DNA from: Candidatus Obscuribacterales bacterium
GTDB taxonomy: Bacteria > Cyanobacteriota > Vampirovibrionia > Obscuribacterales > Obscuribacteraceae
Assembly (NCBI GenBank): GCA_041675385.1
Contig: JBAYTY010000009.1
Coordinates: 14,237 to 78,236 of the forward strand
Direction of reading: 5' to 3'
Length of the DNA: 64,000 nt
The translations under genes and the position numbers were made by a program. Positions 4,842 to 23,700 of this stretch are shown piece by piece. How positions within the stretch are numbered: position 1 is the stretch's first letter; the number at the start of each line of letters is the position of its first letter. Under the pieces are notes generated by a model. It saw nothing but the letters and a program-made list of their open reading frames with translations, was not told the DNA's origin and made no database searches.

Positions 4842-4875
4842 GAACTGTGCGTGATAGTTTCCCATCACACAGCTC
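4842..4875 (-). ncRNA. Group II intron domain V
   Basis: The minus strand reads GAGCTGTGTGATGGGAAACTATCACGCACAGTTC. This is a 34-nt hairpin with the AGC-type catalytic triad position, a 2-nt bulge context and a GAAA tetraloop, as in the domain V consensus. Confidence 0.8.
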
Positions 4876-6355: not shown

Positions 6356-7093
6356 AGTCGTTAGAATCCTTTACTTTGTTATCTCGCGGGACACTCTCTG
6401 GAAGTCAGCCGCCTTTCAGCGTGGGCATGGTCCCTATCTTCGCCATTACAGCGAGGCATTTGCTTTCTCCAGAATCCGTTACCTCCTGAGCTGTTAGCCT
6501 TTGCTTACGCTCTGATTACTCGCTGGACAAGCGAGAGCCCATGAGGCTTACCACGTTCCGATTGAACGACTAGCGACCAGTTTAGGTCTCATCAATATTC
6601 CGGCAGAATTGAGCCTCCTCACTGCCTGTCTTCCAATCAGACAGCCATTCTGCTTCCCTTTTGGGCATGGTGTATCAGCCACTTTCACCATTCAACTGAT
6701 AACGGAACTTGAAATGATTTGCTTTCGCTGACCTTGCTGGTCCCCCTTTGACCCTTGACCTCGTTTGTGGCTTGAAGTTTTGAGTCTTTCGTGCCCTTCT
6801 ATTAACTGCGGTCATTGCTTACTAGCAGCGTGGGCGGAGTCCGTGAGGACTCTTTTACGTAGGGGCAGAGCGGGGAGGGGCTCTGAGATTAAATCCGATC
6901 ATTCAGTCGGCCTCGTGTCGATGATGGAAGGTCAGTTCTATCCCTGTGGCACTCCGTCGGAGCCTCCAGCTCCACCTGCTGTGCCCCCGGATGCGCCTAG
7001 TCCTGCCCCGCAGCCGATTCCGCCGGCAGCAGATCCTGCGACTCCCTCTGAACCTCCGAGCTCGTAACTCTTATTGAAGAAAGAGACCTGAAA

Positions 7094-7381: not shown

Positions 7382-7957
7382 ATGAGAGTATCCTCTCTAA
7401 TTCTCGCGGCAGTTGTCGCGCTCTCGCTTGCTGGGTGTGCTGTGGCACCGTCAGTGCGAGTACATCCACTCACGGCCGCTCAGCCGACTGTCGTTGACCT
7501 GGACGCCTCGGCGAGGGCCATTATCATGGTTCCAAAGCCTGATGGCAAAGGAATGGCTGTGTGCTCCGAGCCGTCGCCTGATGTGGCGATGTCGGCTGTG
7601 GCGAGTATGCTGGCTCAGGTCAAACTCGACAATCCGAATGTCGACGTTCAGACCAAGCTGGATTTCCAGACAGCGGTTATTGACTTGGCTCGTCGCAGTC
7701 AGTTCGTGAACTTTCAAAGGGAGAGTCTGTTTCGCCTTTGCGAACAGGGCATGAATCAGAATTTGAGTTCTGAACAGATCTTCGTGTTGTATCAGCAGGT
7801 GCTGCAGACTTCGCTCAAATTGGCGGAAGCTGAGTTGGCGAAGAACAAGGCAGATTTGGCCAAGGCCCTGAAGGACCCGGCTGTTCGGCAGTTGTTGAAT
7901 CAGCTGGTGGACAAGCCGATTGAGCCCATGCCGCTGGTTGGGCCGAAGAAGAAGTGA
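7382..7957 (+). CDS. Lipoprotein of unknown function
   Basis: The signal peptide has a lipobox: MRVSSLILAAVVALSLAG-C. A purine-rich SD region precedes the ATG. Confidence 0.8.
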   Translation: MRVSSLILAAVVALSLAGCAVAPSVRVHPLTAAQPTVVDLDASARAIIMVPKPDGKGMAVCSEPSPDVAMSAVASMLAQVKLDNPNVDVQTKLDFQTAVIDLARRSQFVNFQRESLFRLCEQGMNQNLSSEQIFVLYQQVLQTSLKLAEAELAKNKADLAKALKDPAVRQLLNQLVDKPIEPMPLVGPKKK

Positions 7958-8326: not shown

Positions 8327-10483
8327 ATGTCTAACAAATTCGTAGACCTCGTAGGCGGCTCAGACGCCAACAACGGCAGTACTTTCGCGCTGCGTAAGAA
8401 GACCCTATCATCGGCTGCAGCAGTTGCAGTAGCAGGTGACGTCATTCGCGTCATGGGCAAACCAAGCACCAGTAGCGGTACCGCGACGTGGACCAAAGGT
8501 TCTCCTCTGGTCACGCTCGCAGCAGCAATGAACCAGCTTGTCTATGGCGACGGCGCCTGGACTCCGTCTGGCGCAACCGTCACGGCTACCGCCAACACCA
8601 CGGCCCCGACTCCCAAGCAGGGCGCCAACAGCTCCAAGCTGGTTTGCGCCGCTGGCTTTACCACCGGCCTGGTTGCCTATTGGCCCACCGGTGCCCTCAA
8701 CTTGAGCGCCTACCAGCAGCTCACCTTCTGGGTGCAGTCGAGCGTTGCTCTGGCCTCTGGTGCACTCAGTCTCAACCTGTGCAGCGACGCGGCTGGCGCA
8801 GTTGTAGTCAACACGCTGACTCTGAACAAGGCCCTGAACGCCGGTCAGTGGACGGCAGTAACCATCGACAATGGTGCGGCACTCGGCGCCTCCATCAATA
8901 GCGTGAGCCTGACGGCCAACTCCACGCTGGCCTCCAAGACCATTTCGCTGGACAACATTTCGGCAGCCAAAGCTCCGTCGGCTGCCGATTGCCTGGCGCT
9001 GAACACGTTGATTTCGCCAGACAACGCAGTTTTCTATTCAGTGCAAAGTATCAATGGCACGACAGTGTATGTCGATGCTCAGGCAACGACTGCTGCCACT
9101 CTGGCCAAGGGCTATCGCGGTGCCACTGGTTCCACTACCTTCTACATGTTGCAGCCGACGGTTGTTTCAATCGGCACCGGCAACACCGTCTACGACCAGG
9201 TCTTCTCTGGCAACGGCTCGGCTGGCAACCCGATCACCATTTCTGGTGGCTGGAACACCACTGACATGTCCACCCAGGACGGTCTGACTCTGATCGACCG
9301 CAGTGACTGGGCCGCTTCTGGTGTCAATCTTTCGGGCACCACCGGCTACATCACTGTCGACAAGATGATGTTCGGCCATGCGGCATTCCCTCTTGGTCTG
9401 GTGTCTACGGCGCGTGGCTACAACGTCAACAACAGTGGCTTTGCTGGCACTGGCTCGTTCTCGACCATGCCGACGCGAGCGGTAAATGTGGCGGGCTCGA
9501 ACTTCATCAACTGCACTGGCACGACGGCTATTCTGAACATCCCGGCCACAGGCAACTACAAGACGGATAACCTGAACTGGAGCATCACCAATACCAAGGT
9601 GTGGGGTGCTGCTGTTGCCGGTGTCAAGGTGCCGCTGTTCGTGGCTGCCGCTCCTGCAACTGTCACTGGCTGCAATTGCTCTGGCAACACCGGTCTGGGC
9701 TTCGACATTCAGTCAATTTGCAACTTCCGCTCCAACACGGCAGAAGGCAACACACTGGGCGGCATCAACTTCCAGGCCATCCAAGGCCAGGTTTCCTACG
9801 GCCTCACGTCGCGCGGCAACACTGTCGGTGAGGTTCTGCTGAACAACGCCGATGTTGAAATCTACGGCCTCGACACGAACACTGTGGGCGGCTCTGCTGT
9901 GCCACAGATCATGATTCCGAACAATGTCAGCGGTCGCGCTGTTGTCTATGACTGGACCCAATACACTGGTGGTGCCCCTGCTGCAGTTTTGACCAAGCTC
10001 GGTAGCCCCGGTACTGGTCGCACGGCAGGCAACTCGGTCAGCTCTCAGAAAGAGGGCGGGAATGCTGCTAACAACACCACCTACACCGACTACGGCACGA
10101 TTACGACGACCGGTGTTGTGGGTCAGCCTGGCTCTGGCATTGCCTGGAAGCTCACTCCTGATACTGACGCCCTGTCTGGTAGCCCGCTCAGCATCAATGT
10201 CGGCAGAGTGGCCTGTCCCGCTAATGTGACAACCACCATCACCTATTACGCCAAATTGAGTGCGGCTGGTCCGACTGCTCGGCTGAAGGTATTTGGCGGT
10301 CGCCATGCCGGTGTCGGCTCTGCCGGGACTGACATCACCGTCTCTATCGCCGGTACCACTTACGCACAGTACGCCATCTCGGTGACCCCGACAGAGGCCT
10401 GTGTAGTCGACATTTGGGCGGAGGTTTTCGGAAGCACAACCCAATCTTTGACTGTCAGCGGTCCCATCGTCGTCAGCCAGTAA
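8327..10483 (+). CDS. Large Thr/Ala/Gly/Asn-rich protein, probable right-handed beta-helix (pectate-lyase/tailspike-like) fold
   Basis: 718-aa ORF. The N-terminus (FVDLVGGSDANNGSTFALRKKTLSSAAAVAVAGDVIRV) matches the GSDxNxG...GDxIxV opening typical of parallel beta-helix proteins. No signal peptide is present. The fold call is an inference. Confidence 0.7.
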   Translation: MSNKFVDLVGGSDANNGSTFALRKKTLSSAAAVAVAGDVIRVMGKPSTSSGTATWTKGSPLVTLAAAMNQLVYGDGAWTPSGATVTATANTTAPTPKQGANSSKLVCAAGFTTGLVAYWPTGALNLSAYQQLTFWVQSSVALASGALSLNLCSDAAGAVVVNTLTLNKALNAGQWTAVTIDNGAALGASINSVSLTANSTLASKTISLDNISAAKAPSAADCLALNTLISPDNAVFYSVQSINGTTVYVDAQATTAATLAKGYRGATGSTTFYMLQPTVVSIGTGNTVYDQVFSGNGSAGNPITISGGWNTTDMSTQDGLTLIDRSDWAASGVNLSGTTGYITVDKMMFGHAAFPLGLVSTARGYNVNNSGFAGTGSFSTMPTRAVNVAGSNFINCTGTTAILNIPATGNYKTDNLNWSITNTKVWGAAVAGVKVPLFVAAAPATVTGCNCSGNTGLGFDIQSICNFRSNTAEGNTLGGINFQAIQGQVSYGLTSRGNTVGEVLLNNADVEIYGLDTNTVGGSAVPQIMIPNNVSGRAVVYDWTQYTGGAPAAVLTKLGSPGTGRTAGNSVSSQKEGGNAANNTTYTDYGTITTTGVVGQPGSGIAWKLTPDTDALSGSPLSINVGRVACPANVTTTITYYAKLSAAGPTARLKVFGGRHAGVGSAGTDITVSIAGTTYAQYAISVTPTEACVVDIWAEVFGSTTQSLTVSGPIVVSQ

Positions 10484-10510
10484 ACCAATCAATCTAAAAG
10501 GAGAAAAGAC

Positions 10511-10780
10511 ATGATCGACGTCGGTCTCAACCTAAATGTCGCCTACAAGGCGGCACCCTTTGTCCTTGGCTCTGGTCAGGACACCACCCCAATGCAGCTC
10601 GTGTATCAGGGGGCGCCTTTTCTGATTGCCAATCAGGAGCGCGGCTTTAGCTATCAGATGGATGTCCTTGGTCGCCTGACCAAGACCACCATCACGCAGG
10701 GTACCAACCAGCAGATAGCCTATGACGCCTCTGGCAATCGGACTTCGGTGGTCACGACTTGCGGCCCGAGCGGCTGTTAA
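10511..10780 (+). CDS. 89-aa protein carrying a single RHS/YD repeat
   Basis: A strong SD (AAAGGAGAAAAGAC) precedes the ATG. The C-terminal LGRLTKTTITQGTNQQIAYDASGNRTSVV is one YD repeat. The N-terminus has a duplicated YKAAPFV / YQGAPFL motif. Confidence 0.7.
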   Translation: MIDVGLNLNVAYKAAPFVLGSGQDTTPMQLVYQGAPFLIANQERGFSYQMDVLGRLTKTTITQGTNQQIAYDASGNRTSVVTTCGPSGC

Positions 10781-10807
10781 GTCACCCAGAAACCCGTCAT
10801 CCGATTG

Positions 10808-10841
10808 GCAACCGCCTATCAGCTTTGCCTCAGGCGGTTGC
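10808..10841 (+). other. Perfect 10-bp stem hairpin between the small YD gene and the RHS gene
   Basis: GCAACCGCCT, a 14-nt loop, then AGGCGGTTGC. No T-run follows, so it may be an RNA processing or attenuation structure rather than a terminator. Confidence 0.5.
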
Positions 10842-10890
10842 TAGTCTCAATTTCGAACCACACAAACCAAAACCAAAGAACGGAAAAATC

Positions 10891-13800
10891 ATGGAAACTC
10901 AAAACAACGTAGGCGTAGTCCCAGAAGACGCGCCAATGCTCTCGTTTGCCAATAGTCCTCAGCCCAAAACCAATCTGCCTATCTCTGTGGCGGAGCTGAA
11001 GAAGCAAGTGGAAAGTCAAGTAATCGATATGTCGACAATCGTCGACGTCAATGCCTTGAACGCGCAGCCATCATTTGCCGCAGCTACTGTCCAGGGCGCG
11101 CCATCAATTACAGAAATGGCACGTGCACTGGCAGGTTCAGCCACCGGTTCCACAGCAGTCGGTCAGATATTCGAGTTTGTCTACAACAACATCGAATGGG
11201 AACCCGGTTGGGGCGTCTACCGTGGCGCTCTTGGCTGCCTAATGGACGGCATGGGTAATGCATTCGACCAAAGCCTGCTCCTGGCCAACCTTTTGAGGTC
11301 AGCGGGCTTCACTGCCAATATTGTCATGGGGGAAATAACCCTATCGACTGCCCAAGTGACAAACTGGTTTGGTACCAACGACATCTTTAGCTCTGCTAAC
11401 TACTGCGGCAACCAAAACATCCCTTTCACTAATCTCGCCGTACCGTTTACGAGCCTGACCTTGGGACACGTATGGTGTCAAGTGGTCATATCTGGCACGA
11501 CTTATGTGTTGGACCCCGCTTTCAAGCAGTACACCCGTACTGCCGGTCTTGGCAGCGCTACGCTGGCAACAGCGCTTGGCTACAATGCCACGACTTTCTT
11601 GACCAACGCACAGTCCGGCGCGACTATCGATGCTGGCGGCGACTTCGTCCAGAACATGAACCGCACGAACGTGCGTAACGACCTCAAGACCATGACGGCA
11701 AATCTGGTCAGCTACATCAACGCAAACACCATCGGTAGCGCCGCTCCTGGCACCGCTACAGTCGAAGATGTGATTGGTGGTCAAACGATCATTCCGGTGA
11801 CCCTGCCGCTCACTCTCGTGACTGTCCTTCCTTACGAAAAAGTAGGCGATGTGCCGACTATTTGGACTGGCGACGTCGACAACGCTTTCAAGACGACTCT
11901 ACAGGTTGAGTACTTTGATCCGGCTGCTGGCAATGCGGTCACCATTAACCAGACCTTCTTTACTGATGCTTTGGCAGCGACTCGCTTGACGCTGTTTTTC
12001 AACGGATCTCTGGTGCCGACCCTGTACCTAAATGGCACGGCGCTGCAATCTGGTAATGCACAGACTGCGGGCACATTTACTTCACTGCGGCTGACAGTCA
12101 ATCACGGCGCTTACCAGGCATTTTGGGGCGGCAAGACTCAGCAGTCTTTCGCATCCGGCATCTATGCCGGTGGCTCTTATCTGATTGCTAATGCTTGGGG
12201 GAACCTTGGCACCGGGCAGCTTGAGTACCACCAGAACCAAGCTGCGGCAAACATTGCGGCAGGCGGCTCTCTTACTTCAGAAGCAGTGCTTGGTGAAAAG
12301 CTTGCCATCGTTTGGTACAGCTGGGCAGCCCAAAATAGCAGAGCTACCGACCTGCTTGGCCGTATCACTGCCTGCCACTTCATGTACAACCACCAGGTGG
12401 GCGTCATTCACTTCAATGATGCCGGAAGCAACGCTGTTGCAACTGACCTGGGTCTTATCTCTGGTGCACCACACAACCTAAACAATGACACCACGCAGAC
12501 TCCCAAGTTCCAGACTATCGTCGCTATGCACGGCGTTGCGCTGGAAGCTATTGTCTGTGCTCAGTCAAACGGCACCCCTCCTGGTGTTTCGGCTACCTCG
12601 ATGCTGGACCTGGCAAACCGGACTGCTGTGGTCACCGTAGGCGGTACCATTACCGCAGGCAATGTGGCAACCATTACAGTCAATGATGCAGCACTTCCTG
12701 GAGGTACGCAGGCTGTTAGCTACACGGTGCTTGTTGGAGATACATTGACGACAATCGCTACTGGACTAGCAGCGGCAGTCAACGGCAACACTAACCTCGC
12801 GGCAATCGGCGTGAAAGGGCTTGGAGTAGGGGCGACAGTTCTTGTTTCCTCGACTTCCGTAAACCAGACCACCTACACTGTTTCGGCAACTGGAACGCTC
12901 ACTTTGTCGGTGGCTTTTGAAAAGCTCTACAAAGGGAGCAGCGCAAACTGGACGGCTGGCACGGCCATCCGAAACAACCTCATAGCAAACGGCTACACAG
13001 CTGGTGACCTCGGTAGGTTGGATACGGACATCCCAAATGGTTATACCTGCGTGCTTGCTGAGCGTAAGAACCAGAAGCTTGGGTCATTCACCGGTTGGGC
13101 ATTCTGGGAGTTCTTCCCCAACGGTTTCAATCCAGCACCCGCTGGTGCATTTGGTATTGTCAACGGTGTCTACAGCTTCGGTGGTGGACAACCTGGCACT
13201 GCAGGCAACGGAACTCAAGGGAGTAACAATAATGGTGAGACCGGTGAAGAACCGATCAGCTATTCCACCGGCGCGTACATTTTGCAGACCAAAGATTTGG
13301 AAATTGGAAGTCAGGAATACCCTTACAAGTTGAGTTTTGGAAGAAACTACGATTCTAAGTCTCAGTATGCTAATGGACCGTTGGGCCGCGGATGGAACCA
13401 CAGCCACAATGTCAACGCCACAGTGGCAAGTAATGGCAGCTTTGCCATGGGGCAGCAGTACGCGGTCCCAGCTTGTGCGACCATTGCCAACATGTTTGTT
13501 AGCGTGGATTTGGCTGCTGATAATGCTCGTCCTGTATCCAAGCTGATGACCATTACCATTGGCGACAACTGGTGGGTGGACCAAATGGTGAATAACGCCG
13601 TGGTGATTTCATACCCGGACGCGACCAATCAAATCTACATCAAGCAGCCAGACGGCTCCTACACTAGGTCAGCCAACAACCTTCCCAGTAAGCTAACCGT
13701 GGTCAGTGGTCTATTTGTTCTGACTACTCCCCAAGGAGTAAAGACAAATTTCAACTCTGCCGGTCAGATTTCTTCGGTTGTATTTCCTACTGGAGTTACT

Positions 13801-16800
13801 GTCTCTTACACTTATACAAGTGGCAAGCTGACCAGCATTTCCAACGGTCTGGGGCGCACACTCACTCTCAACTACACCGGAAATCTGCTCACGAGCGTAA
13901 CCGATGGCACGGGACGCTCAGTTTCCTACACGGTGGATGCAAGTTCAAACTTGACCACATTCCAGGACGCAAACGGGCAAAACACCACTTATGCCTATGG
14001 AACGCCGGGACTGTTAACCCAGTACTTCATGCCAGCCTTTCCAGCCACAGCGATTATCACTAACGTTTACGATTCTCTTAGCCGTGTCAAAACACAGGCG
14101 AACACAAGGAATCAGGTGACTACGCTCTACCTGGCTGGTAGTCGCGCTGAGGTGGTTGATCCTGTTGGAAACAAGACTGTTCGGTACTTTAGTCCGATTG
14201 GTTCGACAGCTCGCCTCATTGATGCTCTTGGCTTCGAAACCAAGACAGTCTATGACGGCTTGAATCGAGTCGTCAAGTTGAATCAGCCTGAGGGAAACTA
14301 CAAGCAAATGACTTTTGATGCCAATGACAATGTCTTGAGCATCACCTCTGTAGCTAAGTCTGGGTCAGGGCTAGCCAATATTGTCGAGAACATGACCTAC
14401 GATACAACTTGGGCGAAACTCAAGACCTATCAGGATGGAAGAGGTAATACCACAACCAATTCTTATGATGCGGCGACTGGAAACCTGCTAACCATCCAAC
14501 GTCCAATGGTTGGAGGGCAAACCCCAACTGTCACAATGACTTATAACGGGCGAGGACAGATGCTGACTCGCACCGATGAGACATCGATTGTGACTCAATT
14601 TAACTACGATGCCACTACCGAAAAGTTGACTTCCATGGTGATAGACTTCGGTGTTTCTCCACATCTCAATTTATCAACTTCCTTCGGCTATGATGCGGTT
14701 GGCAATGTCACCAGCTTGACGGATGCACGCTCAAATCAGACGACCTTTGTATTCAATGGTCTCAGGAAGATGACACAAAAAACTGATCCTGGGCCGTTCA
14801 GTTATGTCACTAACTATGGCTATAACGCCAGCGCTTTCCTTACAAGCACTCAGAGACAAATAGCTGGCTCTCCTGCTTGGCAGTCCGTAAATTGGACTTA
14901 TTCTGCGTCAAATAAGGTTCTTACTGAGACAGATTCATTTGGTCGACAAAAATCTCGTACATATGATGGAAAAGATCGGCTTCAGACCTTAACCGACGGC
15001 CAAAGCCGTGTCTGGCAGCTAGCCTATGATGCAGTCGATCGCTTGAATCAAATCACCGACCCCAATTCGGTTGTGACCGATTTCCGCACCTTTACTGCAA
15101 ACGGAAAATTGGCGTCAATAAAGGATGCACGGAATAATACCACTCAATACTCTTGGGACGGTTTTGACCGCGCGAACAAGACAATCTATGCCGATGCAAC
15201 GTTCGAGCAGAATAGCTCCTACGATGCCAATGGCAACGTGCTTACGTTCTTGACTCGGTCTGGGAATAGCATCGTCAAAACTTTCGACGCCTTGAACCGA
15301 GAGGCAACCAGAGCACCGCAAGGTCAGCCCACGGTAACCTTGACTTATGATTTAGCCAACCGGCTGACTCAAGTCAGCAAGCCAGTTGTTGCAGGAGACC
15401 CATCTTCTGGAGCAACACAATTCTTCTTCGATACCGCTGGTCGTTTCTTCAAGGAGCAATACCCAGATGCAAAAACAGTCACGCATGTGCTTGATGGAAA
15501 TGGCAATTTCACCAAGACGACTTGGCCAGATGCCTATTTTATTGACCGAGTCTTCGATCAGATGAACCGCCTGACAGACATCAAGTTGAATGGCTCTGCA
15601 ATTGTGGCTGCCCATTTTGACTACAATGAGCTGTCCCAGCGTACGCAGTTGACCTATAGCAACGGGGCTACAGTGGTTTACAACCCTCGCCTCAATGGAG
15701 ACCTGACAGGTATCACTCATAATTTTGTTGGAAGCACTATGAGTCTCGCATATGGCTTTAACAATGTACAGGAGCCAATTGTGGCATCTGCAACAGACTC
15801 AAGCTATATCTGGCGCCCTAGCGGAGCAAGCAGCGTCCCGTACGGTGCGACAGACAACGTCAACAAGTATCCTACTGTTGGCGGAGTTGCCCAAACCTAT
15901 GACGGCAACAAGAACCTGATTGGCGATGGCACATGGACCTATACTTTTGATACCGAAAATCATTTGCTAACTGCAAATGCCACCGGTGTCAGTGCAAGCA
16001 TGGTCTACGATCCAATGCACCGACAATCTCAAAAGACTGTTGGTGCCGGAAAAACCCGCTACATCTATTCACGTTGGCAGCGCATAGCTGACTATGATGG
16101 TGTGGCAGGGACCCTGCAAAATCGTTATGTCTACGGCACTGGAATTGATGAGCCACTTATCCAGGTATCTAACGGAGGAGTTTTAAGTTTCCTTCATGCC
16201 GATAAGATGGGATCAATCGTTGGTGTAAGCAACGCCTCTGGTGCTAGTGCAAGCAAAAACTTGTATAGTCCGTTCGGTGAGACGAGCACTCTCTCTGGAA
16301 CGAACTTTGGCTTTACTGGTCAACGGTACGATTTTGAGCTTGGTCTGTACTACTTCAAGATGCGCTATTTCGCTCCCAAGATTGGGCGATTTTTGCAGCC
16401 AGATCCCGCGGGATTCACCACTGAGGACTTCAATCTTTATTCGTACGGGAACAACAGTCCTCACAAGTATTCTGACCCATCAGGTACTTTTGCTGTAGTC
16501 GTAGGAATAGCTCTGGCAGTAGCTGCTGCTTTGGCGTTGAGTGGATGTTCCGACAACGGTAACAATGCTGGTGATAGCAATCAAGGCACCGGTGACAGTA
16601 ACCAAGGCACAGGAGACCAGAATCAAGGTCAGAGTGGAGGTGATCAGAATCAAGGTACCGGAGACCAAACTGGTGGACCGCACTATGGTCACAATGAGAC
16701 TAATCCAATGGATTCGAGTGACCCTGCCTTGCAGGGTACGATTAACGGGATAAATCAGACCCAAAATGGTCCTGTTGGACAAGAGCAGCACACTCCAACA

Positions 16801-16869
16801 CCAGTCATTCCAAACCATGGGCAGCCGCGAGTGCAATTTGATGATCACGGCAACCAAGTGTATAAGTAG
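10891..16869 (+). CDS. RHS/YD-repeat protein with N-terminal transglutaminase-like domain and atypical C-terminal payload
   Basis: The track ORF starts at TTG 10759; the ATG at 10891 (METQNNVG) is more plausible. A transglutaminase-like Cys/His/Asp pattern is present (ALGCLMDGMGNAFDQ.., GHVWCQV, VLDP). A DUF6531-like opening follows (EEPISYSTGAYILQTKDLEIG..GRGWNHSH), then dozens of YD repeats. The RHS core end reads RYFAPKIGRFLQPDPAGF..NLYSYGNNSPHKYSDPSGT. Confidence 0.95.
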   Translation: METQNNVGVVPEDAPMLSFANSPQPKTNLPISVAELKKQVESQVIDMSTIVDVNALNAQPSFAAATVQGAPSITEMARALAGSATGSTAVGQIFEFVYNNIEWEPGWGVYRGALGCLMDGMGNAFDQSLLLANLLRSAGFTANIVMGEITLSTAQVTNWFGTNDIFSSANYCGNQNIPFTNLAVPFTSLTLGHVWCQVVISGTTYVLDPAFKQYTRTAGLGSATLATALGYNATTFLTNAQSGATIDAGGDFVQNMNRTNVRNDLKTMTANLVSYINANTIGSAAPGTATVEDVIGGQTIIPVTLPLTLVTVLPYEKVGDVPTIWTGDVDNAFKTTLQVEYFDPAAGNAVTINQTFFTDALAATRLTLFFNGSLVPTLYLNGTALQSGNAQTAGTFTSLRLTVNHGAYQAFWGGKTQQSFASGIYAGGSYLIANAWGNLGTGQLEYHQNQAAANIAAGGSLTSEAVLGEKLAIVWYSWAAQNSRATDLLGRITACHFMYNHQVGVIHFNDAGSNAVATDLGLISGAPHNLNNDTTQTPKFQTIVAMHGVALEAIVCAQSNGTPPGVSATSMLDLANRTAVVTVGGTITAGNVATITVNDAALPGGTQAVSYTVLVGDTLTTIATGLAAAVNGNTNLAAIGVKGLGVGATVLVSSTSVNQTTYTVSATGTLTLSVAFEKLYKGSSANWTAGTAIRNNLIANGYTAGDLGRLDTDIPNGYTCVLAERKNQKLGSFTGWAFWEFFPNGFNPAPAGAFGIVNGVYSFGGGQPGTAGNGTQGSNNNGETGEEPISYSTGAYILQTKDLEIGSQEYPYKLSFGRNYDSKSQYANGPLGRGWNHSHNVNATVASNGSFAMGQQYAVPACATIANMFVSVDLAADNARPVSKLMTITIGDNWWVDQMVNNAVVISYPDATNQIYIKQPDGSYTRSANNLPSKLTVVSGLFVLTTPQGVKTNFNSAGQISSVVFPTGVTVSYTYTSGKLTSISNGLGRTLTLNYTGNLLTSVTDGTGRSVSYTVDASSNLTTFQDANGQNTTYAYGTPGLLTQYFMPAFPATAIITNVYDSLSRVKTQANTRNQVTTLYLAGSRAEVVDPVGNKTVRYFSPIGSTARLIDALGFETKTVYDGLNRVVKLNQPEGNYKQMTFDANDNVLSITSVAKSGSGLANIVENMTYDTTWAKLKTYQDGRGNTTTNSYDAATGNLLTIQRPMVGGQTPTVTMTYNGRGQMLTRTDETSIVTQFNYDATTEKLTSMVIDFGVSPHLNLSTSFGYDAVGNVTSLTDARSNQTTFVFNGLRKMTQKTDPGPFSYVTNYGYNASAFLTSTQRQIAGSPAWQSVNWTYSASNKVLTETDSFGRQKSRTYDGKDRLQTLTDGQSRVWQLAYDAVDRLNQITDPNSVVTDFRTFTANGKLASIKDARNNTTQYSWDGFDRANKTIYADATFEQNSSYDANGNVLTFLTRSGNSIVKTFDALNREATRAPQGQPTVTLTYDLANRLTQVSKPVVAGDPSSGATQFFFDTAGRFFKEQYPDAKTVTHVLDGNGNFTKTTWPDAYFIDRVFDQMNRLTDIKLNGSAIVAAHFDYNELSQRTQLTYSNGATVVYNPRLNGDLTGITHNFVGSTMSLAYGFNNVQEPIVASATDSSYIWRPSGASSVPYGATDNVNKYPTVGGVAQTYDGNKNLIGDGTWTYTFDTENHLLTANATGVSASMVYDPMHRQSQKTVGAGKTRYIYSRWQRIADYDGVAGTLQNRYVYGTGIDEPLIQVSNGGVLSFLHADKMGSIVGVSNASGASASKNLYSPFGETSTLSGTNFGFTGQRYDFELGLYYFKMRYFAPKIGRFLQPDPAGFTTEDFNLYSYGNNSPHKYSDPSGTFAVVVGIALAVAAALALSGCSDNGNNAGDSNQGTGDSNQGTGDQNQGQSGGDQNQGTGDQTGGPHYGHNETNPMDSSDPALQGTINGINQTQNGPVGQEQHTPTPVIPNHGQPRVQFDDHGNQVYK
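16489..16866 (+). other. RHS C-terminal payload region (126 aa after the DPSGT core end)
   Basis: The region reads FAVVVGIALAVAAALALSGC, a hydrophobic helix ending in a lipobox-like LSGC. It continues with GDSNQGT/GDQNQGT repeats and a Gln/Asn/Pro/His-rich tail. Confidence 0.7.
16570..16677 (+). repeat. Imperfect 21-bp tandem repeats encoding GD(S/Q)NQGT units
   Basis: ggtgatagcaatcaaggcacc / ggtgacagtaaccaaggcaca / ggagaccagaatcaaggt.. / ggtgatcagaatcaaggtacc / ggagaccaaactggtgga. Confidence 0.75.
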
Positions 16870-16909
16870 TGATAGGATCTAGCTTGTCAGCTTAGAGTTC
16901 TAGAGAATT

Positions 16910-16942
16910 GAGAAGGGGAAGAATTCAATTCTTCTCCTTCTC
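16910..16942. terminator. Bidirectional hairpin terminator between the convergent RHS and CPBP genes
   Basis: GAGAAGGGGAAGAATT, C, AATTCTTCTCCTTCTC: 16-nt arms with one G-T wobble. Confidence 0.7.
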
Positions 16943-17007
16943 TACCTATTCTCATTCTCAGCTCTTAGCGCTGGAACCATATTAAGCAATAACCCTCGTA
17001 CTTCATA

Positions 17008-17574
17008 TCAGACGAACCTGCAAAAATTCCACAAGAAGTGAAGAAGGATGCAGATATTTACACTTGAGAACCTGCGATAAGAAATGGCTAGCAAAATACC
17101 CAGCAGCAATACAGCATAGTAATTTGTGAATCGAAGATTATGAAAACTGACAAAGATAGCAACATTCAAGAGGAACGGCTTGAATGAATTTTCTCCGTAC
17201 GTGTTCTTGAGTGCTCGCATGAGAACTCCACGAAATAGCAATTCTTCACTAAAGGAAGCCATAAGAACATCCCTGAAAAATTCGTACGAAAATAGCTCTG
17301 GTGCTCTTATTGCTGGACTTGACAGTTTGAGGGTCATGCGGATCACTAAAGTCGCAACAACTAAAAAAGAAAGATCTTTGACGCATTCCCATTTACCAAT
17401 TTGGAATTGTGATTTCCCTAACAGCTCGTCTAAAGTTGTTTTCAAATCTCTTCTGCGATAGATCAAAAAGCATGAAAGAAGGAATGGAAGTATGTATAAG
17501 TAGACGGACATGAACGTTTGACGCCAAAGACTCAAGCCAATCAAATAACAAATTACTGTAGAACTAGAAGGCAC
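17008..17574 (-). CDS. CPBP (CAAX/Abi) family intramembrane metalloprotease-like protein
   Basis: The three family motifs are present in order, SEELLFRG (EExxxR), VSFHNL (FxxxH) and HFLWN (HxxxN), within a multi-TM protein. The start is uncertain (17574 or ATG 17511). Confidence 0.85.
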   Translation of the reverse strand: MPSSSTVICYLIGLSLWRQTFMSVYLYILPFLLSCFLIYRRRDLKTTLDELLGKSQFQIGKWECVKDLSFLVVATLVIRMTLKLSSPAIRAPELFSYEFFRDVLMASFSEELLFRGVLMRALKNTYGENSFKPFLLNVAIFVSFHNLRFTNYYAVLLLGILLAISYRRFSSVNICILLHFLWNFCRFV

Positions 17575-17735
17575 TCTTTGAAACCAATTTGGGGGTGACT
17601 TGGGAACACTATTTGTAGCTGTCTGGCTTTGCTAGGCGTTAGCTATGTCTATTGTTCCACTTTGAAGAGCAAAACAAATAGTTTTGATTGATGTTATGTA
17701 TTATCAGCGCTTGCTAATGCTGTAAAAGCTTACTT

Positions 17736-17783
17736 GGAGAGGGTTTTCGGGATTGAATTAATCCGCCCTCTCCTCTTTTTTTT
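17736..17783 (+). terminator. Orphan intrinsic terminator on the plus strand
   Basis: GGAGAGGG..CGGGATTGAATTAATCCG..CCCTCTCC followed by TCTTTTTTTTT. No plus-strand gene lies upstream. Confidence 0.55.
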
Positions 17784-17925
17784 ATCTCGAAAATGCTCTA
17801 CTATAGAATGTTTTAGGGTGTGGCCAAGGCTAGCCGAAAATCGACGCAACCATGCGGGTTCCACTGGTCTAGACTCCGGGGGGCCGATAAAAAATTTCGG
17901 CTATCTTGCAAAGGGGCTCTGCTGC

Positions 17926-18570
17926 TTAGCGCTTCTTGAGAAGTTTCTTCCCGTCAGGCCTTAGCGCCCCAGCCGGACTGACATAGCGGTAAAGAGTCTG
18001 GCGGCTTATGCCCAGTTCCTCGCACAGATCATTGACTACTGTACCGGGTCTGCCCATTGCCGCCTTGGCCATGTGCACTTTCGCTGGCGTCATAGTGTGG
18101 CGACGACCACCGACCCGTCCACGGGCTCTAGCGGCTGCTAGCCCGGCCCGTGTTCGCTCAGAGATAAGAGAGTGTTCATAGTCAGCTAGCGCCGCGAAGA
18201 TCCCGAAAATCAGTTTGCCAGAAGACGTGGTGGTATCAATACTGCCACCCTGGCCTGTTAGCACCTTTAGCTTGACTCTGCGTTTTGAGAGGTCTTGAAT
18301 GAGATTGACTAAGTGAGTTAGGTCACGGCCAAGGCGATCGAGCTTCCAAACAATTAGGGTGTCGCCTTCACGCAGCGCTTTTAGGCAGGCGTCTAGACCA
18401 GGGCGGTCATCTTTCTTGCCTGAGGCGTGGTCCTCATACATTCGCTTCTTCGTGACGCCAGCGGCCACGAGAGCGTCCTTTTGTAAATCGACAGTTTGGG
18501 AGCCGTCGGCTTTGGATACTCGCATATAGCCTATTAGCAATTTTTTTTGCCCCTCTGTTGGTGCAGTCAC
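17926..18570 (-). CDS. Serine recombinase (resolvase/invertase family, Tn3 TnpR-like)
   Basis: LLIGYMRVSKADGSQTVDLQ carries the catalytic Ser. Also present are ..GDTLIVWKLDRLGRD.., ..FAALADYEHSLISERT.. and a C-terminal HTH (ISRQTLYRYV). Confidence 0.95.
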   Translation of the reverse strand: MTAPTEGQKKLLIGYMRVSKADGSQTVDLQKDALVAAGVTKKRMYEDHASGKKDDRPGLDACLKALREGDTLIVWKLDRLGRDLTHLVNLIQDLSKRRVKLKVLTGQGGSIDTTTSSGKLIFGIFAALADYEHSLISERTRAGLAAARARGRVGGRRHTMTPAKVHMAKAAMGRPGTVVNDLCEELGISRQTLYRYVSPAGALRPDGKKLLKKR

Positions 18571-18619
18571 TTATACGGCCGTTTGCAGAACAAATTATTT
18601 TCAAGCAAAAACAGTCGAT

Positions 18620-18705
18620 TTTGTGTCACTTATCCAGTCACTTTATCAATGCTCTATAAACTTGGGAAATTTAGTTAAGTGACAAACTTAAACAGTCGTG
18701 ACTCT
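18620..18705. promoter_or_regulatory. Putative res / recombinase-binding repeats upstream of the resolvase gene
   Basis: TGTCACTTA (18624-18632) is inverted as TAAGTGACA (18676-18684). Additional AGTCACTT (18637) and AGTCGTGACT (18694) half-sites are present. Confidence 0.35.
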
Positions 18706-18784
18706 TGAGGTGGAACACTTTGCGGGAAGCCGGTCACAGGGCCAACCTTCTCATTAAGTCAAATGGCGGGTATAAGTTATTACG

Positions 18785-19906
18785 TCATTTTGCAACGCGG
18801 AAAGCCTTTCCATCGTCACCTCCAATAACTTGAGTTTCGACCACTTTGTCGTTTCGAAGAGTTACGTACAGGATTCGGCCGCTCAAATCGCCGAGCCCGG
18901 CTACATCCCAGCTCAATATTTTGTCTCCGTTTCCATTTACAACAGCGTCATCAAATCGATTACCCTTGGGCAATAGTTCTCTCACTTCTCTTTCATTTTT
19001 CGAATAGAGCCAGTGCGAGTCTTCAAGCGCATCGGCTACAAGTGAACGAACACCGATGGGAAAATCGTGATTCCAAAAGAAATAGTAAAAGGGGCGTGGA
19101 TACTCAAGCACCACAGTCATTAACGTAAATGCAAGGAATGAGCCTGAAAGCCATTTCAGTTGCTTGCTTAATCGGTTTCTTCTTCGTTCGGTAATCTCAT
19201 CAAATGAAAGCGGCTCTGCTGCTTGCGCCTCAAGCGCGGCAACACTGCTAGAAAGCCAGTGCATATACCATTTAGAAAAGGTAACAGTGTGACCATCATC
19301 ATCCAGTAGTGGAGCTAAGCCGTTTCTATCTGCCCTTCTATCAAACCAGAGCGACCCGGCTTGATCACCTTTAACTACCAGCCATATTCTCAAACCGCAA
19401 CCTTGATGGCAGATTGGAATAGCACCATTCAAGTTTTCAGCGGCAAAATAAACGCTTTCAAATTGGTCAAGCTCTGCTCCGTTTCCGCTGATTTTATCAG
19501 GATAAGAAATGTTCCAGGCCGTTCGATGTGGAAAGGGTTCGCTTATTGCACCAATCAATTTATCCCAGTTTTCCAATCCTGTTGGGCTTGAATCGCTCTT
19601 CCCTAGAGGAAATACACCATAGTATGGCCCGGCACCGCCATTGCCGACTTCAGTTAGAAAGTAGCGATAATCATCTGGAAGATACAGTTCGTGCTCAGCT
19701 TCGAATGCCGTTACCAGGCTCTCATCTAACGGTGCATTGAGAGAGTAGTGATGGTCTTTTGCACCAAATAATTGAGAGCCCCTGTCCAGGTCTATCAGAC
19801 GCGGCAGGAGTGATTTTATATTGGCAGCATTAAATTCAGAACTACTGGTCATCATCCTTTTTTTTTGTAACTGCCCAGGCCGCATTAAGCAATTTAGTCT
19901 ACCCAT
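18785..19906 (-). CDS. SMI1/KNR4 (SUKH-1) family protein with a central TM segment and extra C-terminal domain
   Basis: LPDDYRYFLTEVGNGGAGPYYGVFPL and ..IPICHQGCGLRIWLVVKGDQAGSLWFD are typical SMI1/KNR4 signatures. A hydrophobic segment, LSGSFLAFTLMTVVL, follows. The start is uncertain (19906, 19885 or 19855/19852). Confidence 0.8.
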   Translation of the reverse strand: MGRLNCLMRPGQLQKKRMMTSSSEFNAANIKSLLPRLIDLDRGSQLFGAKDHHYSLNAPLDESLVTAFEAEHELYLPDDYRYFLTEVGNGGAGPYYGVFPLGKSDSSPTGLENWDKLIGAISEPFPHRTAWNISYPDKISGNGAELDQFESVYFAAENLNGAIPICHQGCGLRIWLVVKGDQAGSLWFDRRADRNGLAPLLDDDGHTVTFSKWYMHWLSSSVAALEAQAAEPLSFDEITERRRNRLSKQLKWLSGSFLAFTLMTVVLEYPRPFYYFFWNHDFPIGVRSLVADALEDSHWLYSKNEREVRELLPKGNRFDDAVVNGNGDKILSWDVAGLGDLSGRILYVTLRNDKVVETQVIGGDDGKAFRVAK

Positions 19907-20054
19907 CGATTTTAATCAATTCATACGGCTCATATCTTGTCAAATCCACTATTTCATCAGCCAGTTGCTGCGAGTGGTTGGTTAACCACGCGTGAGTATC
20001 TCTTGATGCCCTTGCAATTGGCTTTGGAAGCAAGTCTTACAAACCTGATTGCAT

Positions 20055-20381
20055 TTATGCCGCATCAATTTCTAGAATAAATTTGACTCTGTGCCCTAGT
20101 TTGGTCAAGTATTCTAACAGTCTATCCACACTGAAATGTTTTGTGTTTAAGGCCATAATGTCGGCAATGCGCGGCTGTGTTGTACCAAGCAGTTGAGCCG
20201 CTTCACGCTGAGAGCAGTGTTTCTCTTGCAAAATCCTGCGGACTTGAACCATCAGCTCAGTGCGAGCAAACAAGCTAGCAGCTGCGGCATCGCTGAATCC
20301 AATATCCTCGAAAACATTGCCGCAGCTTTCCTCAATTTGCGGAATTTTATTATTTCCTTCTTTCTTGCTGCATTTGGGCAT
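20055..20381 (-). CDS. XRE-family HTH antitoxin-like protein (HigA/Gp49-partner type)
   Basis: NVFEDIGFSD...QREAAQLLGTTQPRIADIMALNTKHFSVDRLLEYL is the usual antitoxin layout found downstream of RelE/ParE (Gp49-like) toxins. Confidence 0.8.
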   Translation of the reverse strand: MPKCSKKEGNNKIPQIEESCGNVFEDIGFSDAAAASLFARTELMVQVRRILQEKHCSQREAAQLLGTTQPRIADIMALNTKHFSVDRLLEYLTKLGHRVKFILEIDAA

Positions 20382-20523
20382 ATGCTTCCCTCGCTTGTTT
20401 TAAGTCGATTGCGGATTTTGCTCTGGTCTTTTTCTCAAAGCAATGAAGCACGTATTTGAAAAGCCAGGCGGCTATTAAGAACCCAGGAAAGCTTTTTGAG
20501 TGGCAGCCTATCCATAGAATCCA
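20350..20523 (-). pseudogene. Remnant of a RelE/ParE (Gp49-like) toxin gene
   Basis: Own translation gives ..KSFPGFLIAAWLFKYVLHCFEKKTRAKSAIDLKQAREAYAQMQQERRK*. The conserved YVLHxFxKKT..I..A...Y C-terminus is present. There is an in-frame stop at 20524-20526, no start codon, and the central part of the family is missing. It overlaps the antitoxin start. Confidence 0.6.
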
Positions 20524-20707
20524 TTATGCCAAATTTTGCATAATGGCCAATCAACAGTTCAAAGATGTTTTTGCCCCACTAAGAGCATTCTAACTTTTCT
20601 TGATATAAGCTGACAGACTTAATTTTCTGGAGTATTTTTGACTCTCTAGACTTGTCTGACCGGCTAGCCGTTGTCGTAGACGCAGCATTTGAATTTGGAG
20701 AAAAATA

Positions 20708-23700
20708 TTGCGAATTTCTGAGAAAGAAGTCTATGACTATTTCGGCTACACCTACGCCACGCGCGGAGACTCTTATCAGCGCGGTCGAAGGGTTTTGGAG
20801 TTTTTGTTCGATGAGAAAAATCTAGCATTATCAGGAAGGGTTCGTGGCGGTGATTCGCAGCCGTACAATGTTTCAGTCAAGCTCAAGCCTGACGGTTTAA
20901 AGATTGCCAACGCTAGATGCAGCTGCCCTATGGGTGGTTTCTGCAAGCACTCTGCTGCACTTTTGCTTCACGCTATTAGGGCTGGTTTGTTCGGTGTATC
21001 TGAGCGCTATTCTTCAACTCAGGTTGTTCTAGACGAGTTTGACCAGGTTGTAAATCCTGTTTCTCGGTTTGGTCAAAGCCGGGCTACTTCTGCTCAGTCA
21101 ACAGCGCCCCTGTTGACCGTTGCTAAGCCCGTGAAGCTATCTTGGCATTTTACCAATTGGGTTGAAGGTCTTAGCGCCGCACTAACAGAAGCGCCACAAG
21201 ATCCAGATTCAACTTCAAATACAAATTCTAACGCTGGTGCAAAAGCGCGGCAGCTCGATTCTGTCCTCTATCATCTAAGCATATTTTCAAATGGAAGATT
21301 TCGACTTGCCGCTTCACACGCCCGTAAGCTCAAGACCGGCGGCTGGGGCCGTGCCCAGAAAGCTGAATTCGAGCGTCTTGCAGCTAAGTCTGCCGCTTAT
21401 GTCACTGAAGACGACTGCGAAATTGCCAAGCTATTCTTATCTGGGAGGGATAGCTCTAGTTGGTACGATCGCGATAATTTTCCTGACATTGCTAGTCTTT
21501 GTGAAATTCTAGTTGATAAACTTTTGAAGACTGGTCGCTGTTATTGGAAAGAAGATGATGTGCCCCTCTCAGCGGGACCGCCGAAGCAGGGTAAGCTGAG
21601 ATGGGAGGCTGTTGCCCAAGGTAAGCAAGTTCTTCGTTGCAACACCGAGCAGGCCGGCGATATTACTGCCATTGCCGGTGTCGCTTGGTATATTGATCCC
21701 TTCGCTAAGCAGATGGGCCTTTTAGAGTTGCCACTACCCTTGGCGGCAGTTAAAACTATCTTTGCTGCTCCTTCGGTAGATCCTGAAGAGGTTGAAGCCG
21801 CATCGCTTGCCTTGGCAAAATTCGGCGCTGTTATTCCGATGCTGAAAAGCAAGTACAAAACCGAGACGATTGTGGTCAAGCCTACGCCATGCTTGAGGCT
21901 AGAAACTTACCAACCATCTGCTTCGTATCTTGGATACAATCGTAAAAGTAATCCTCAGGCAGTTCTGCACTTCGACTATGGTGATAGCTTTGTTGATTCT
22001 AAGGCTACTGAGAGTCGCTGCATTGAAGGCGATAAGCTCATTATTCGACAGAAAGACAATAGTGATGAAGGCAAATATTCATTGCAGCTTCTAGAGTTCG
22101 GTCTTAGGCGCTATCACGACAATCCTCATCCACTGAATACTATGTTATTCACCTTTCCGGCCAGTGCAGAAGATAAGTGGTTTAGCTTTGCTTCTGATGC
22201 TCTGCCCGCGTTGAAAGAGCAAGGCTGGCAGATTGAGATTGATAAGTCGTTCAGCTATGAGGCCGTAATTCCAGAAGAAGAGTGGACAGCTGATGCCGCA
22301 GAGGGCTCTGACTTCTGGTTCTCCCTTGATTTGGGCATCACTATTGAAGGTAGGCGTGTGCCCCTTCTTCCCATTGTTCATGAGGCTTTGAGACGAGTCG
22401 TTGGTGACAATCCGCTGGTTGAGATTGAGCAGCTAAATCGCAACGGAATTTTCTATGCACCACTTAAAGATGGTCGGCAGGTGGCTTTGCCATTTGAACG
22501 TGTAAGAGACATTGTTGGTGTGCTCTTAGAGTTGTTTGATAAAGACCCTAACTCCTTTGTCAAAGGTGCTGAAGTATCTCTGCCGCAAATTTTAGATTTG
22601 TCCAAGTTCGTTTCTGATCAGTCTGATAGCGCGTTTGCTTGGAAGATTGGCAAGAAACTCAAAGCATTGATGGATAAAGTTAGAGCCTTTGACGGTCTCA
22701 AGGCTGTTGTGCCACCTAAAGGCTTCAAAGCCGAACTGCGGCCTTATCAGTTAGAGGGCCTCAGTTGGTTGAACTTTTTGAGAGAGTTCGAACTTGGTGG
22801 CATACTTGCTGACGATATGGGTTTGGGTAAAACTGTGCAAACCCTCGCGCATGTTGCCCTAGAAAAACACGAGAAGCGCCTTGATAAGCCATTCCTTGTA
22901 ATTTGTCCGACGTCTGTTCTGCCTAACTGGATTAGCGAAATTGAAAAGTTTGCGCCTAAATTAAAAGTGACAGCTCTGTCTGGGCCTGAGCGTTCTCTCA
23001 ATTTTTCTAAGATCGCTGGAAGCGATATCGTTGTTACGACCTACCCACTGGTGGCACGTGATGAGAAAACGCTTGCCAAACAAAAGTGGAAGGCTGTTAT
23101 TCTCGATGAGGCGCAGTCGATCAAGAATCCGGGCACCCTTGCCGCTCAAGCTGTGTGTCGGTTGCGCAGTGACTATAGAATCTGTCTGACCGGTACACCA
23201 ATTGAAAATCACCTTGGTGAACTTTGGTCGCAGTTCAATTTTCTTATGCCTGGCTTTTTGAAAGACTTGCCGACATTTACGCGAAAGTTTCGCACCCCGA
23301 TAGAAAAACAAAAGAATCAAGTCTTACAGAAAGTACTGGCAGCAAAGGTTCGACCGTTTCTCTTGCGCCGAACCAAAGAGCTTGTTGCTAAAGATTTGCC
23401 AGAGAAAACTATCATGATTAAAAGCGTCGAGCTAGAGGGCGCGCAGCGTGATTTGTATGAGACTGTGCGTGTGGCGATGTATGAGAAAGTCAAAGAGGCT
23501 CTAGCTTCTAAGGGCTTGGCCAAGAGCCAAATAATTATTTTAGATGCCATGCTCAAGCTACGTCAGGTATGCTGTGACCCGCGTTTGGTCTCGCTCACTG
23601 CGGCAAAGAAGGTTCAGTCAACGGCAAAGTTGGAACTTCTTTTAGAAATGATTGAAGAGTTAGTGGCTGAAGGCAAGAAGATTTTACTGTTTTCGCAGTT

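Follow-up and report, generated by a model that had tools for sequence, protein, structure and literature searches.

A possible membrane-inserting tip at the C-terminus of an RHS protein from a Candidatus Obscuribacterales bacterium

In the Rhs proteins whose structures have been solved, a C-terminal plug faces the interior of the protein cocoon, and two Asp residues cut the tip after the Leu of a DPxGL motif, the tip staying encapsulated until delivery (PMC8636562, PMC10684867). The catalytic motif of Tse5 and Rhs1 is DPXG-X18-20-DPXG, and cleavage occurs between L1168 and I1169 in Tse5 and after DPLGL in Rhs1 (PMC10684867, PMC8636562). In this work we analyzed an RHS protein encoded in a 64-kb stretch of DNA (the window) from a Candidatus Obscuribacterales bacterium (contig JBAYTY010000009.1), and in particular its last 126 residues, the tail, which open with a hydrophobic helix. 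Our favored reading, to which we assign a probability of about 0.4, is that this tail is a predicted encapsulated, autoproteolytically released, non-enzymatic tip that inserts into membranes.

Tips of this kind have precedents. The C-terminal toxin of Tse5 (Tse5-CT; P. aeruginosa RhsP1, PA2684), of ~15 kDa, is hydrophobic, autocleaved and non-enzymatic, is encapsulated in a disordered state within the shell and inserts into membranes; its immunity protein, Tsi5, is embedded in the membrane through two transmembrane (TM) segments (PMC9637101, PMC10684867). Tox-WTIP, from the work of Zhang et al. 2012, is a predicted two-helix, membrane-spanning, pore-forming, non-catalytic domain on RHS-repeat proteins (PMC3482391). 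The C-terminus of EsxX and the CdiA-CT ionophores are small, helical, non-enzymatic C-terminal domains that depolarize membranes, and CdiI immunity proteins are described as having two TM helices (PMC12744356, PMC11630599, PMC3482391).

The protein studied here resembles Tse5 in having an RHS cocoon with a DPXG...DPXG autoprotease, and its modelled shell matches the Tse5 structure 8cp6. The differences are several. Tse5-CT is predicted to contain several TM and amphipathic helices, whereas the tail has one helix followed by 106 disordered acidic residues and shows no sequence similarity to it (PDB search, E<=10). Tse5 is cut after the Leu of DPxGL, whereas a Thr occupies that place here; it has a PAAR-like N-terminus and travels by the type VI secretion system, whereas no delivery system is evident here; and it has its cognate tsi5, whereas the only membrane-protein neighbor of our RHS gene is convergent. 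Tox-WTIP has two helices and the RxxR and W-x-[ST]-I-P signatures, neither of which occurs in the tail, and EsxX and CdiA-CT have multi-helix bundles or GxxxG zippers and are delivered by type VII secretion or contact-dependent inhibition systems, in contrast to the single Ala-rich helix found here. Judged by this lack of similarity and by its single helix, the tail is not a member of the Tse5-CT or Tox-WTIP groups; by analogy, it may work like Tse5-CT. The parts of the RHS gene that concern us are the following:

10891-16869, plus strand: gene of the RHS/YD-repeat protein, 1992 aa, ATG at 10891 and stop codon at 16867-16869 (Pfam, NCBIfam, motif positions)
16264-16485, plus strand: RHS repeat-associated core domain (C-terminal plug/aspartyl autoprotease), aa 1792-1865 (TIGR03696)
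16486-16488, plus strand: Thr1866, at the site of the conserved Leu of DPxGL (comparison with 101 tails)
16489-16548, plus strand: hydrophobic helix FAVVVGIALAVAAALALSG, then Cys1886 (hydropathy, AlphaFold2)
16549-16680, plus strand: SDNGNNA, then five 7-residue GD(S/Q)NQG(T/Q)-type repeats in 21-nt units (Tandem Repeats Finder, unit comparison)
16681-16866, plus strand: 62-aa acidic segment rich in His, Pro, Gln and Asn, predicted to be disordered and ending in the RVQFDDHGNQVYK hairpin (AlphaFold2, composition)

The RHS protein is 100% identical to P0001, annotated as 'RHS repeat-associated core domain-containing protein' in a Candidatus Obscuribacterales metagenome-assembled genome (MAG). 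Pfam and NCBIfam models outline a weak N-terminal transglutaminase-like region, DUF6531, the RHS-repeat shell (YD/RHS repeats: PF05593, E=4e-39, plus TIGR01643), Rhs_assc_core and the variable tail. The Rhs_assc_core model (TIGR03696) scored 76 bits, with a cutoff of 32.5, on a query carrying one additional N-terminal residue, and its match stops one residue before Thr1866. The two motifs of the autoprotease are DPAG (aa 1838-1841, 16402-16413) and DPSG (aa 1862-1865, 16474-16485), separated by 20 residues, and both catalytic Asp residues are present. The initial annotation, made from the sequence of the window, had described this end of the core as canonical; it is not fully so, the cleavage-site Leu of DPxGL being replaced by Thr1866.

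An AlphaFold2 (AF2) model of aa 800-1992, based on an alignment with 45 relatives, gave a confident beta-cocoon for the shell (pLDDT ~90), and the Foldseek matches of this shell were Rhs1 7pq5 (TM-score 0.63/0.71), 8qja, Tse5 8cp6, RhsA 7q97 and Tse15, with E values from 1e-46 to 1e-51. In the shell-plus-tail model the pLDDT fell below 50 from D1838 on. Compared with its ortholog in the related locus L004, the RHS core showed a non-synonymous divergence (dN) of 0.11 and a saturated synonymous divergence (dS), with a dN/dS of ~0.05; the core is under strong purifying selection. By its sequence features the protein is predicted to belong to the RHS polymorphic toxins, the Leu at the residue preceding the cut (P1) being the one defining feature that it lacks.

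The tail comprises the last 126 residues of the protein, from Phe1867 at 16489 to position 16866, as the initial annotation had it. Alignments with the four nearest homologs, of 84, 82, 81 and 75% identity, extend over 94% of the protein, and each of these homologs carries a different, unrelated tail. DNA homology to the 84%-identical L004 ortholog spans window positions 10008-16478, ending at the DP codons of DPSG. This comparison, put forward in the initial annotation as a check on polymorphism, had the expected outcome: the tail is a true polymorphic tip and not a piece of the structural RHS core, and it took the place of another tip at the junction where the conserved DPxG is encoded, the classic point of RHS tip replacement. 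Within the 90%-identity cluster of the protein all the tails are identical. A tip shufflon driven by an invertase (the resolvase at 17926-18570) was rejected, the best inverted repeats being only 17 nt long at 82%, and no other RHS fragments were found within the window.

The helix FAVVVGIALAVAAALALSG has 19-20 residues, mostly Ala, Val and Leu. Its Kyte-Doolittle hydropathy peaks at 2.45 over 19 residues and the Hessa scale sums to -0.7 kcal/mol, values at which it is predicted to be hydrophobic enough for membrane insertion. By hydropathy it is the only such segment in the tail. AF2 rendered it helical both alone and attached to the shell, each time with low confidence. The model of the tail alone (mean pLDDT 57) consists of this single helix plus a tiny terminal hairpin, and the last residues (QPRVQFDDHGNQVYK, 16820-16866), which look like a single YD repeat, are the sole secondary structure modelled after the helix (pLDDT ~80). 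The helix also displays a ladder of small residues spaced small-xxx-small (A2-G6-A10-A14-S18); in so Ala-rich a helix, about half of it small residues, this is weak (rough chance estimate, 0.15) and we did not use it as evidence.

After the helix, the initial annotation had reported five GD(S/Q)NQGT-type repeats encoded by 21-bp units; four of them are clean and the fifth is degenerate (GDSNQGT, 16570-16590; GDSNQGT, 16591-16611; GDQNQGQ, 16612-16632; GDQNQGT, 16639-16659; GDQTGGP, 16660-16680), with a 6-nt Ser-Gly spacer following unit 3. At its thresholds, Tandem Repeats Finder reported just 2.3-2.4 copies with a period of 21. Among units 1-4, 24 of the 38 nucleotide differences fall at third codon positions, and 17 of the 24 differing codons are synonymous (7 non-synonymous). 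Since the differences between units are mostly third-position or synonymous, the repeat was constrained at the peptide level in its present frame; selection on the tail is not directly measurable because the tail is a singleton. The 106 residues after the helix (G20 Q16 N14 D10 T9 P8 S6 H5; net charge -10) are of low complexity, in agreement with the initial description of a Gln/Asn/His/Pro-rich tail, except that Gly is the commonest of them. Three stop codons close the RHS reading frame.

No enzyme motif or fold is recognizable in the tail by Pfam, NCBIfam, PDB sequences or AF2, as had been noted initially. No Pfam or NCBIfam family passes on it, and it had no match at E<=10 among PDB sequences, which include the solved Tse5 entries. 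Homologs were absent from a word-indexed search of 5.8 billion proteins, from an exhaustive phmmer search of 1.84 billion representatives and from a tblastn search against 166 related loci. A toxin hidden by a frameshift or in another frame was also rejected: translation in all six frames, together with a blastx comparison to the tails of 119 relatives, returned nothing, and the antisense ORF at 16480-16857 is a low-complexity by-product.

The tails of the relatives led to the result that we consider the most interesting. Almost all of the 160 related loci belong to MAGs of Obscuribacterales/Melainabacteria, in which one genome often holds several paralogs, and the RHS family is expanded in the Obscuribacterales (Melainabacteria). 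We compared 101 distinct tails (window 16486-16866 plus those of 100 loci). Only eight contain a Pfam domain (NucA/NucB, DPBB_1, DUF4329, Tcp10_C or DUF6973); the median length is 178 aa and 50% of residues are G, P, Q, N, S, T or D, the tail of the window ranking 5 of 101, near the extreme. Many tips of the family are low in complexity, rich in Gly or Pro and 37-261 aa long. The absence of an enzyme motif together with low complexity is the norm among these tails. Judging from the NucA/NucB and DPBB_1 tails and from a SUKH immunity-type gene nearby, the family is a real polymorphic toxin family, and with more than 90% of its tips lacking a known domain it represents a large unexplored reservoir of cargo. 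The initial proposal of a novel RHS payload type is overstated, as Tse5-CT and Tox-WTIP precede it and 93 of the 101 family tails are likewise without a recognizable domain.

A hydrophobic helix directly after DPxG (helix-first tails) was present in nine of about 101 tails, in eight sequence-unrelated versions: those of the window, P0012, P0024, P0038, the related pair L005/L028, L006, L102 and L156. Several of them continue with low-complexity polar sequence after the helix, and the summed Hessa scale reaches -3.4 in P0012 and -7.3 in P0024. The residue that follows DPxG in the nine is T, T, T, T, Q, Q, E, E and E; Leu is thus found in 0/9 helix-first tails versus 88/92 of the others (Fisher p ~1e-9), and both catalytic Asp residues are kept in all nine proteins. 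The consistent absence of the P1 Leu from helix-first tips is a rule at the level of the family and the most testable of our results, and it bears on how cleavage is coupled to the packaging of hydrophobic cargo. A neighboring gene with at least two predicted TM segments accompanies 5/8 helix-first tails, 4/18 tails with a later TM segment and 7/70 tails without any; counting the window, the figures are 6/9 helix-first versus 11/89 (Fisher p=7e-4), on the basis of crude ORF calls and a hydropathy threshold. Multi-pass membrane neighbors are as expected for cargo that would be targeted to membranes.

According to the favored reading, the helix and the disordered tail would be shielded from water inside the RHS cocoon, as in the solved Rhs structures. 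Because one residue separates the helix from the plug, the helix would begin within the lumen, a position that argues against a membrane-anchor role for the intact protein. The DPAG-x20-DPSG aspartyl autoprotease would cut at or next to Thr1866, yielding a fragment of ~13 kDa with the Ala/Val/Leu helix at its N-terminus; as both catalytic Asp residues are present, such a helix-led fragment is plausible. Once out of the shell at the target cell, the helix would partition into the membrane while the acidic tail (net -10) would remain on the side of origin, and the damage would be non-enzymatic, by depolarization or by a leak through helix oligomerization. More speculatively, the convergent gene downstream, coding for a CPBP intramembrane protease, would protect the producer, as proposed for Abi proteins and bacteriocins. 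Most likely, the tail belongs to a known kind of interbacterial toxin tip, as a variant that would seek out membranes. The initial annotation had anticipated that autoproteolysis would expose a membrane-seeking helix, and the retained catalytic Asp residues agree with this, while the missing P1 Leu makes release uncertain. It had also left open membrane insertion or lipid anchoring: the former gains from the enrichment of multi-pass membrane neighbors, and the latter depended on one four-residue motif that is within chance.

Several observations weigh against a membrane-inserting tip. The tail is a singleton from one MAG, and one helix plus 106 disordered acidic residues is unlike the characterized multi-helix pore formers. 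Cleavage is uncertain because the Leu that precedes the cut site in Tse5 and Rhs1 is a Thr here. No co-directional immunity gene follows the RHS gene, and the CPBP gene is unlike the tail in composition and has its sole relatives beside an ortholog with a different tail. A signal peptide, a PAAR domain and an LXG domain are all absent from the RHS protein, and no secretion system was found in the 64-kb window. The counts of membrane neighbors, too, depend on the ORF calls and threshold mentioned above. If the reading is true, one-helix tips abutting the autoprotease site would widen the known RHS cargo, made up mainly of enzymes and a few multi-helix pore formers; the practical value of this particular tail is modest, given its single occurrence.

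The surroundings of the RHS gene contain these features:

4409-4897, plus strand: small multi-pass membrane protein, common to related loci (locus comparison)
about 4800-7000, minus strand: group II intron (reverse transcriptase ORF 4865-6355; Rfam Intron_gpII 4800-4877)
7382-7957, plus strand: lipoprotein with leader MRVSSLILAAVVALSLAGC, conserved in related loci (locus comparison)
8327-10483, plus strand: 718-aa protein, no Pfam/NCBIfam family (locus comparison)
10511-10780, plus strand: small ORF whose last ~40 aa are a YD repeat (Pfam, locus comparison)
16909-16943, no strand assigned: hairpin separating the convergent RHS and CPBP genes, its 15-bp stem perfectly paired (-27.8 kcal/mol with flanks)
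17008-17511, minus strand: CPBP/Rce1-like (Abi) glutamic-type intramembrane protease, 167 aa, ORF extending to 17574 (PF02517, E=2e-15)
17926-18570, minus strand: serine recombinase (Pfam)
18785-19906, minus strand: SUKH-1/SMI1-KNR4 immunity-type protein (Pfam)
20055-20381, minus strand: helix-turn-helix protein (Pfam)

The CPBP protein has its EExxxR, FxxxH and HxxxN motifs intact. Its gene is convergent with the RHS gene at a distance of 139 nt, with no co-directional gene there, and the hairpin between the two is probably a bidirectional terminator, which was not among the listings of a consensus terminator scan. A minus-strand ORF is the first neighbor in about a third of the related loci, according to crude ORF calls. 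The CPBP gene has a GC content of 39-40%, versus ~50% in the tail, and a search of 5.8 billion proteins for close homologs of its product returned this protein alone. Among the 166 loci, its only relatives are two plus-strand copies located 2.4 kb downstream of the orthologous RHS gene of L004. CPBP-like genes stand there in tandem (16319-16981, 17138-17443 and 20292-20660); the first has a degenerate EExxxR motif (SEDPVFFG) and an IS66 element (17499-20155) interrupts the second.

The arrangement recalls the self-immunity of bacteriocin producers, in that a CPBP protease gene adjoins a predicted membrane-active peptide; a role of CAAX/Abi proteins in such self-immunity has been proposed (Kjos et al. 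2010, cited in PMC8692603). It departs from that model in the convergent orientation, the differing composition and the relatives beside another RHS tail. The CPBP gene is a candidate immunity or processing partner of the tail, possibly as an orphan immunity gene; among the loci, its relatives occur only in L004, beside a different tail. We rejected a C-terminal sorting signal processed by the CPBP protein. Such signals lie at the extreme C-terminus and consist, in this order, of a Cys-containing motif, a TM helix and an Arg-rich cluster (10.1101/2023.06.07.544157); in the tail the Cys comes after the helix instead of before it, a further 106 residues lie beyond, and an Arg cluster is lacking. 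NCBIfam sorting-domain models did not match the tail, and the CPBP protein scored 31 bits against a cutoff of 75 for MrtJ and 20 against 130 for MrtS.

Predicted lipoproteins are encoded at the position of immunity genes in three related loci, L070 (6362-7153), L073 (6360-7151) and L104 (6279-6695), with leaders ending in ..LLLSSC and ..VLTSC; this suggests that the tips of these loci would act in the periplasm.

The main rival to a membrane-inserting tip, unlikely in our estimation, holds that the tail is evolutionary debris or a captured lipoprotein leader, that is, the 5' part of a gene such as that of a periplasmic immunity lipoprotein (h-region, lipobox and disordered tether) joined to the end of the RHS core with no toxic function. 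The helix and its L-S-G-C do resemble genuine leaders of this lineage (..LAVVLSGC in L002 and ..LSLAGC in the window gene at 7382), and the Hessa value of the helix is signal-peptide-like, those of P0012 and P0024 being far more hydrophobic. Lipoproteins typically carry a low-complexity linker behind the Cys, and the tail has such a stretch. The lipoproteins in the immunity position in L070/L073 and L104 fit a donor of this kind, and debris would also be consistent with an orphan tail devoid of homologs and fold, with the lack of a co-directional immunity gene, with the abundance of mobile elements in the surrounding island, among them a resolvase, two integrases, a group II intron and a fragment of a Mu transposase, and with the absence from this locus of a 258-aa upstream gene of its relatives.

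What tells against debris is the junction, which lies exactly at the canonical DPxG recombination point, where a random in-frame deletion would rarely fall. Helix-first tips, moreover, recur independently and always with a residue other than Leu after DPxG, which gives them the look of a class under selection; neither the databases searched nor the 166 related loci yielded a donor lipoprotein; and the 6-kb RHS ORF is unbroken, with strong purifying selection acting on it. The synonymous bias of the repeats would also fit a former lipoprotein gene and does not discriminate. A separate lipoprotein gene inside the 3' end of the RHS gene was discarded, as there is no in-frame ATG, GTG or TTG in the 40 codons before the helix.

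Quite improbable is the alternative that the tip stays uncleaved, the change of the P1 Leu to Thr, Gln or Glu blocking autoproteolysis in helix-first proteins and leaving the helix as a filler of the lumen or as a membrane anchor of the whole protein. The complete absence of Leu after DPxG in the helix-first class (0/9, versus 88/92 elsewhere) speaks for it, since the Tse5 (L1168/I1169) and Rhs1 cuts follow that residue (PMC10684867, PMC8636562). Yet both catalytic Asp residues persist in 9/9 of these proteins with no relaxed constraint apparent, an attached helix could not reach the bilayer with the plug C-terminus facing inward (as inferred from 7pq5 and 8cp6), and Thr, Gln or Glu could merely cap a helix that starts at the residue after the cut (P1').

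The initial annotation had drawn attention to an internal, lipobox-like L-S-G-C after the hydrophobic helix. The motif is present at 16537-16548 (aa 1883-1886), after a 16-residue uncharged stretch, and fits the pattern [LVI][ASTVI][GAS]C; its significance is another matter, since 2.1% of the 380 internal hydrophobic segments in the ORFs of 167 sequences terminate in this way. The chance of at least one lipobox among nine helix-first tails is P ~0.17, and with a looser PROSITE-type pattern, matched by two of the nine, P ~0.04. The lipobox of the tail is within chance expectation. The tail is like a lipoprotein signal peptide in its h-region ending in L-S-G-C and followed by a low-complexity polar tether, and SitA of Myxococcus shows that polymorphic toxins may be lipid-anchored (PMC5562445). 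Lipoproteins and SitA, unlike the tail, have a true N-terminal signal with a basic n-region and are exported by Sec; here the signal is internal (aa 1867-1886 of 1992), sits behind a folded shell of ~200 kDa and has no basic residues, a cleaved fragment beginning with T/F-A-V-V and no Lys or Arg. By position and n-region, the helix is predicted not to be a lipoprotein signal peptide.

Lipidation of the cargo is very improbable in our view. It would require the helix to serve as a signal peptide, Lgt to acylate Cys1886 and signal peptidase II to remove the helix, giving a lipid-anchored acidic peptide, with the CPBP protein in processing or immunity. The match of L-S-G-C and h-region to local lipoprotein leaders favors it, as does a second helix-first tail, that of P0038, which ends in T-T-G-C plus a polar linker. 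Under the positive-inside rule, the acidic C-terminal flank would favor the N-in/C-out topology of a signal peptide. Some proteins of the CPBP family have Cys-containing sorting signals as their targets or take part in the acylation of lipoproteins (10.1101/2023.06.07.544157; PMC7387801), and SitA is a lipidated polymorphic toxin (PMC5562445). Against these points stand the 2.1% background of the lipobox, the lack of a basic n-region in a motif placed 1880 residues from the N-terminus, the absence of such a Cys from 7/9 helix-first tails and the association of the CPBP relatives with an ortholog bearing a different tail. The most elaborate version is about as improbable: helix-first tips would be a distinct cargo class with the cleavage-site residue tuned to the cargo, the window helix being an externally delivered signal peptide that, through Lgt and signal peptidase II acting at Cys1886, would plant a lipid-anchored acidic repeat peptide in the inner membrane of the recipient or the producer, with CPBP immunity by intramembrane cutting of the helix. 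On the whole, what the initial annotation observed is confirmed, with the corrections given above, and its interpretation is partly supported.

The RHS locus is contained in an island of ~24 kb (949-3326, minus strand; 3409-4038, plus; 17926-18570, minus; 20708-24205, plus) that includes two tyrosine recombinases, a C-terminal fragment of a Mu transposase, a serine recombinase and a SWIM/SNF2 helicase. Beyond it lie housekeeping genes coding for a major facilitator superfamily transporter, a thioredoxin-reductase-like protein, carbonic anhydrase, dihydrofolate reductase and others. The group II intron (reverse transcriptase/maturase) lies antisense at the 3' end of the 4409-4897 gene, where it replaces the variable, low-complexity C-terminus of the encoded membrane protein. 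Counterparts of the upstream lipoprotein are found in L002 (4038-4670) and L137 (4595-5179), and together with the small membrane protein it might belong to the export route of the RHS protein; a 258-269-aa gene that accompanies both in L002-L006 is absent from the whole window. The 718-aa protein, whose gene directly precedes a mini-ORF and the RHS gene, shares 50% identity with its L004 counterpart.

This mini-ORF codes for about two YD repeats and precedes the RHS gene by ~100 bp in all the loci for which the DNA on that side was read (L001 1008-1139 and 8910-9041; L002 5763-5894; L003 5767-5898 and 13061-13393; L005 1983-2114). Its 43-aa product, MAADSFTVTYDSLGRIHIITYLSGKTITYTYDAxGNRTSVVST, is near-identical across MAGs whose RHS proteins are only 45-58% identical to that of the window. 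It could be a leader peptide, a strand that complements the shell or a recoding site. The version in the window is more divergent and forms the C-terminal 40 aa of an 89-aa ORF, which shares its frame with the 718-aa ORF, from which one stop codon and 27 nt separate it, and which has a 22-nt overlap with the extended RHS ORF.

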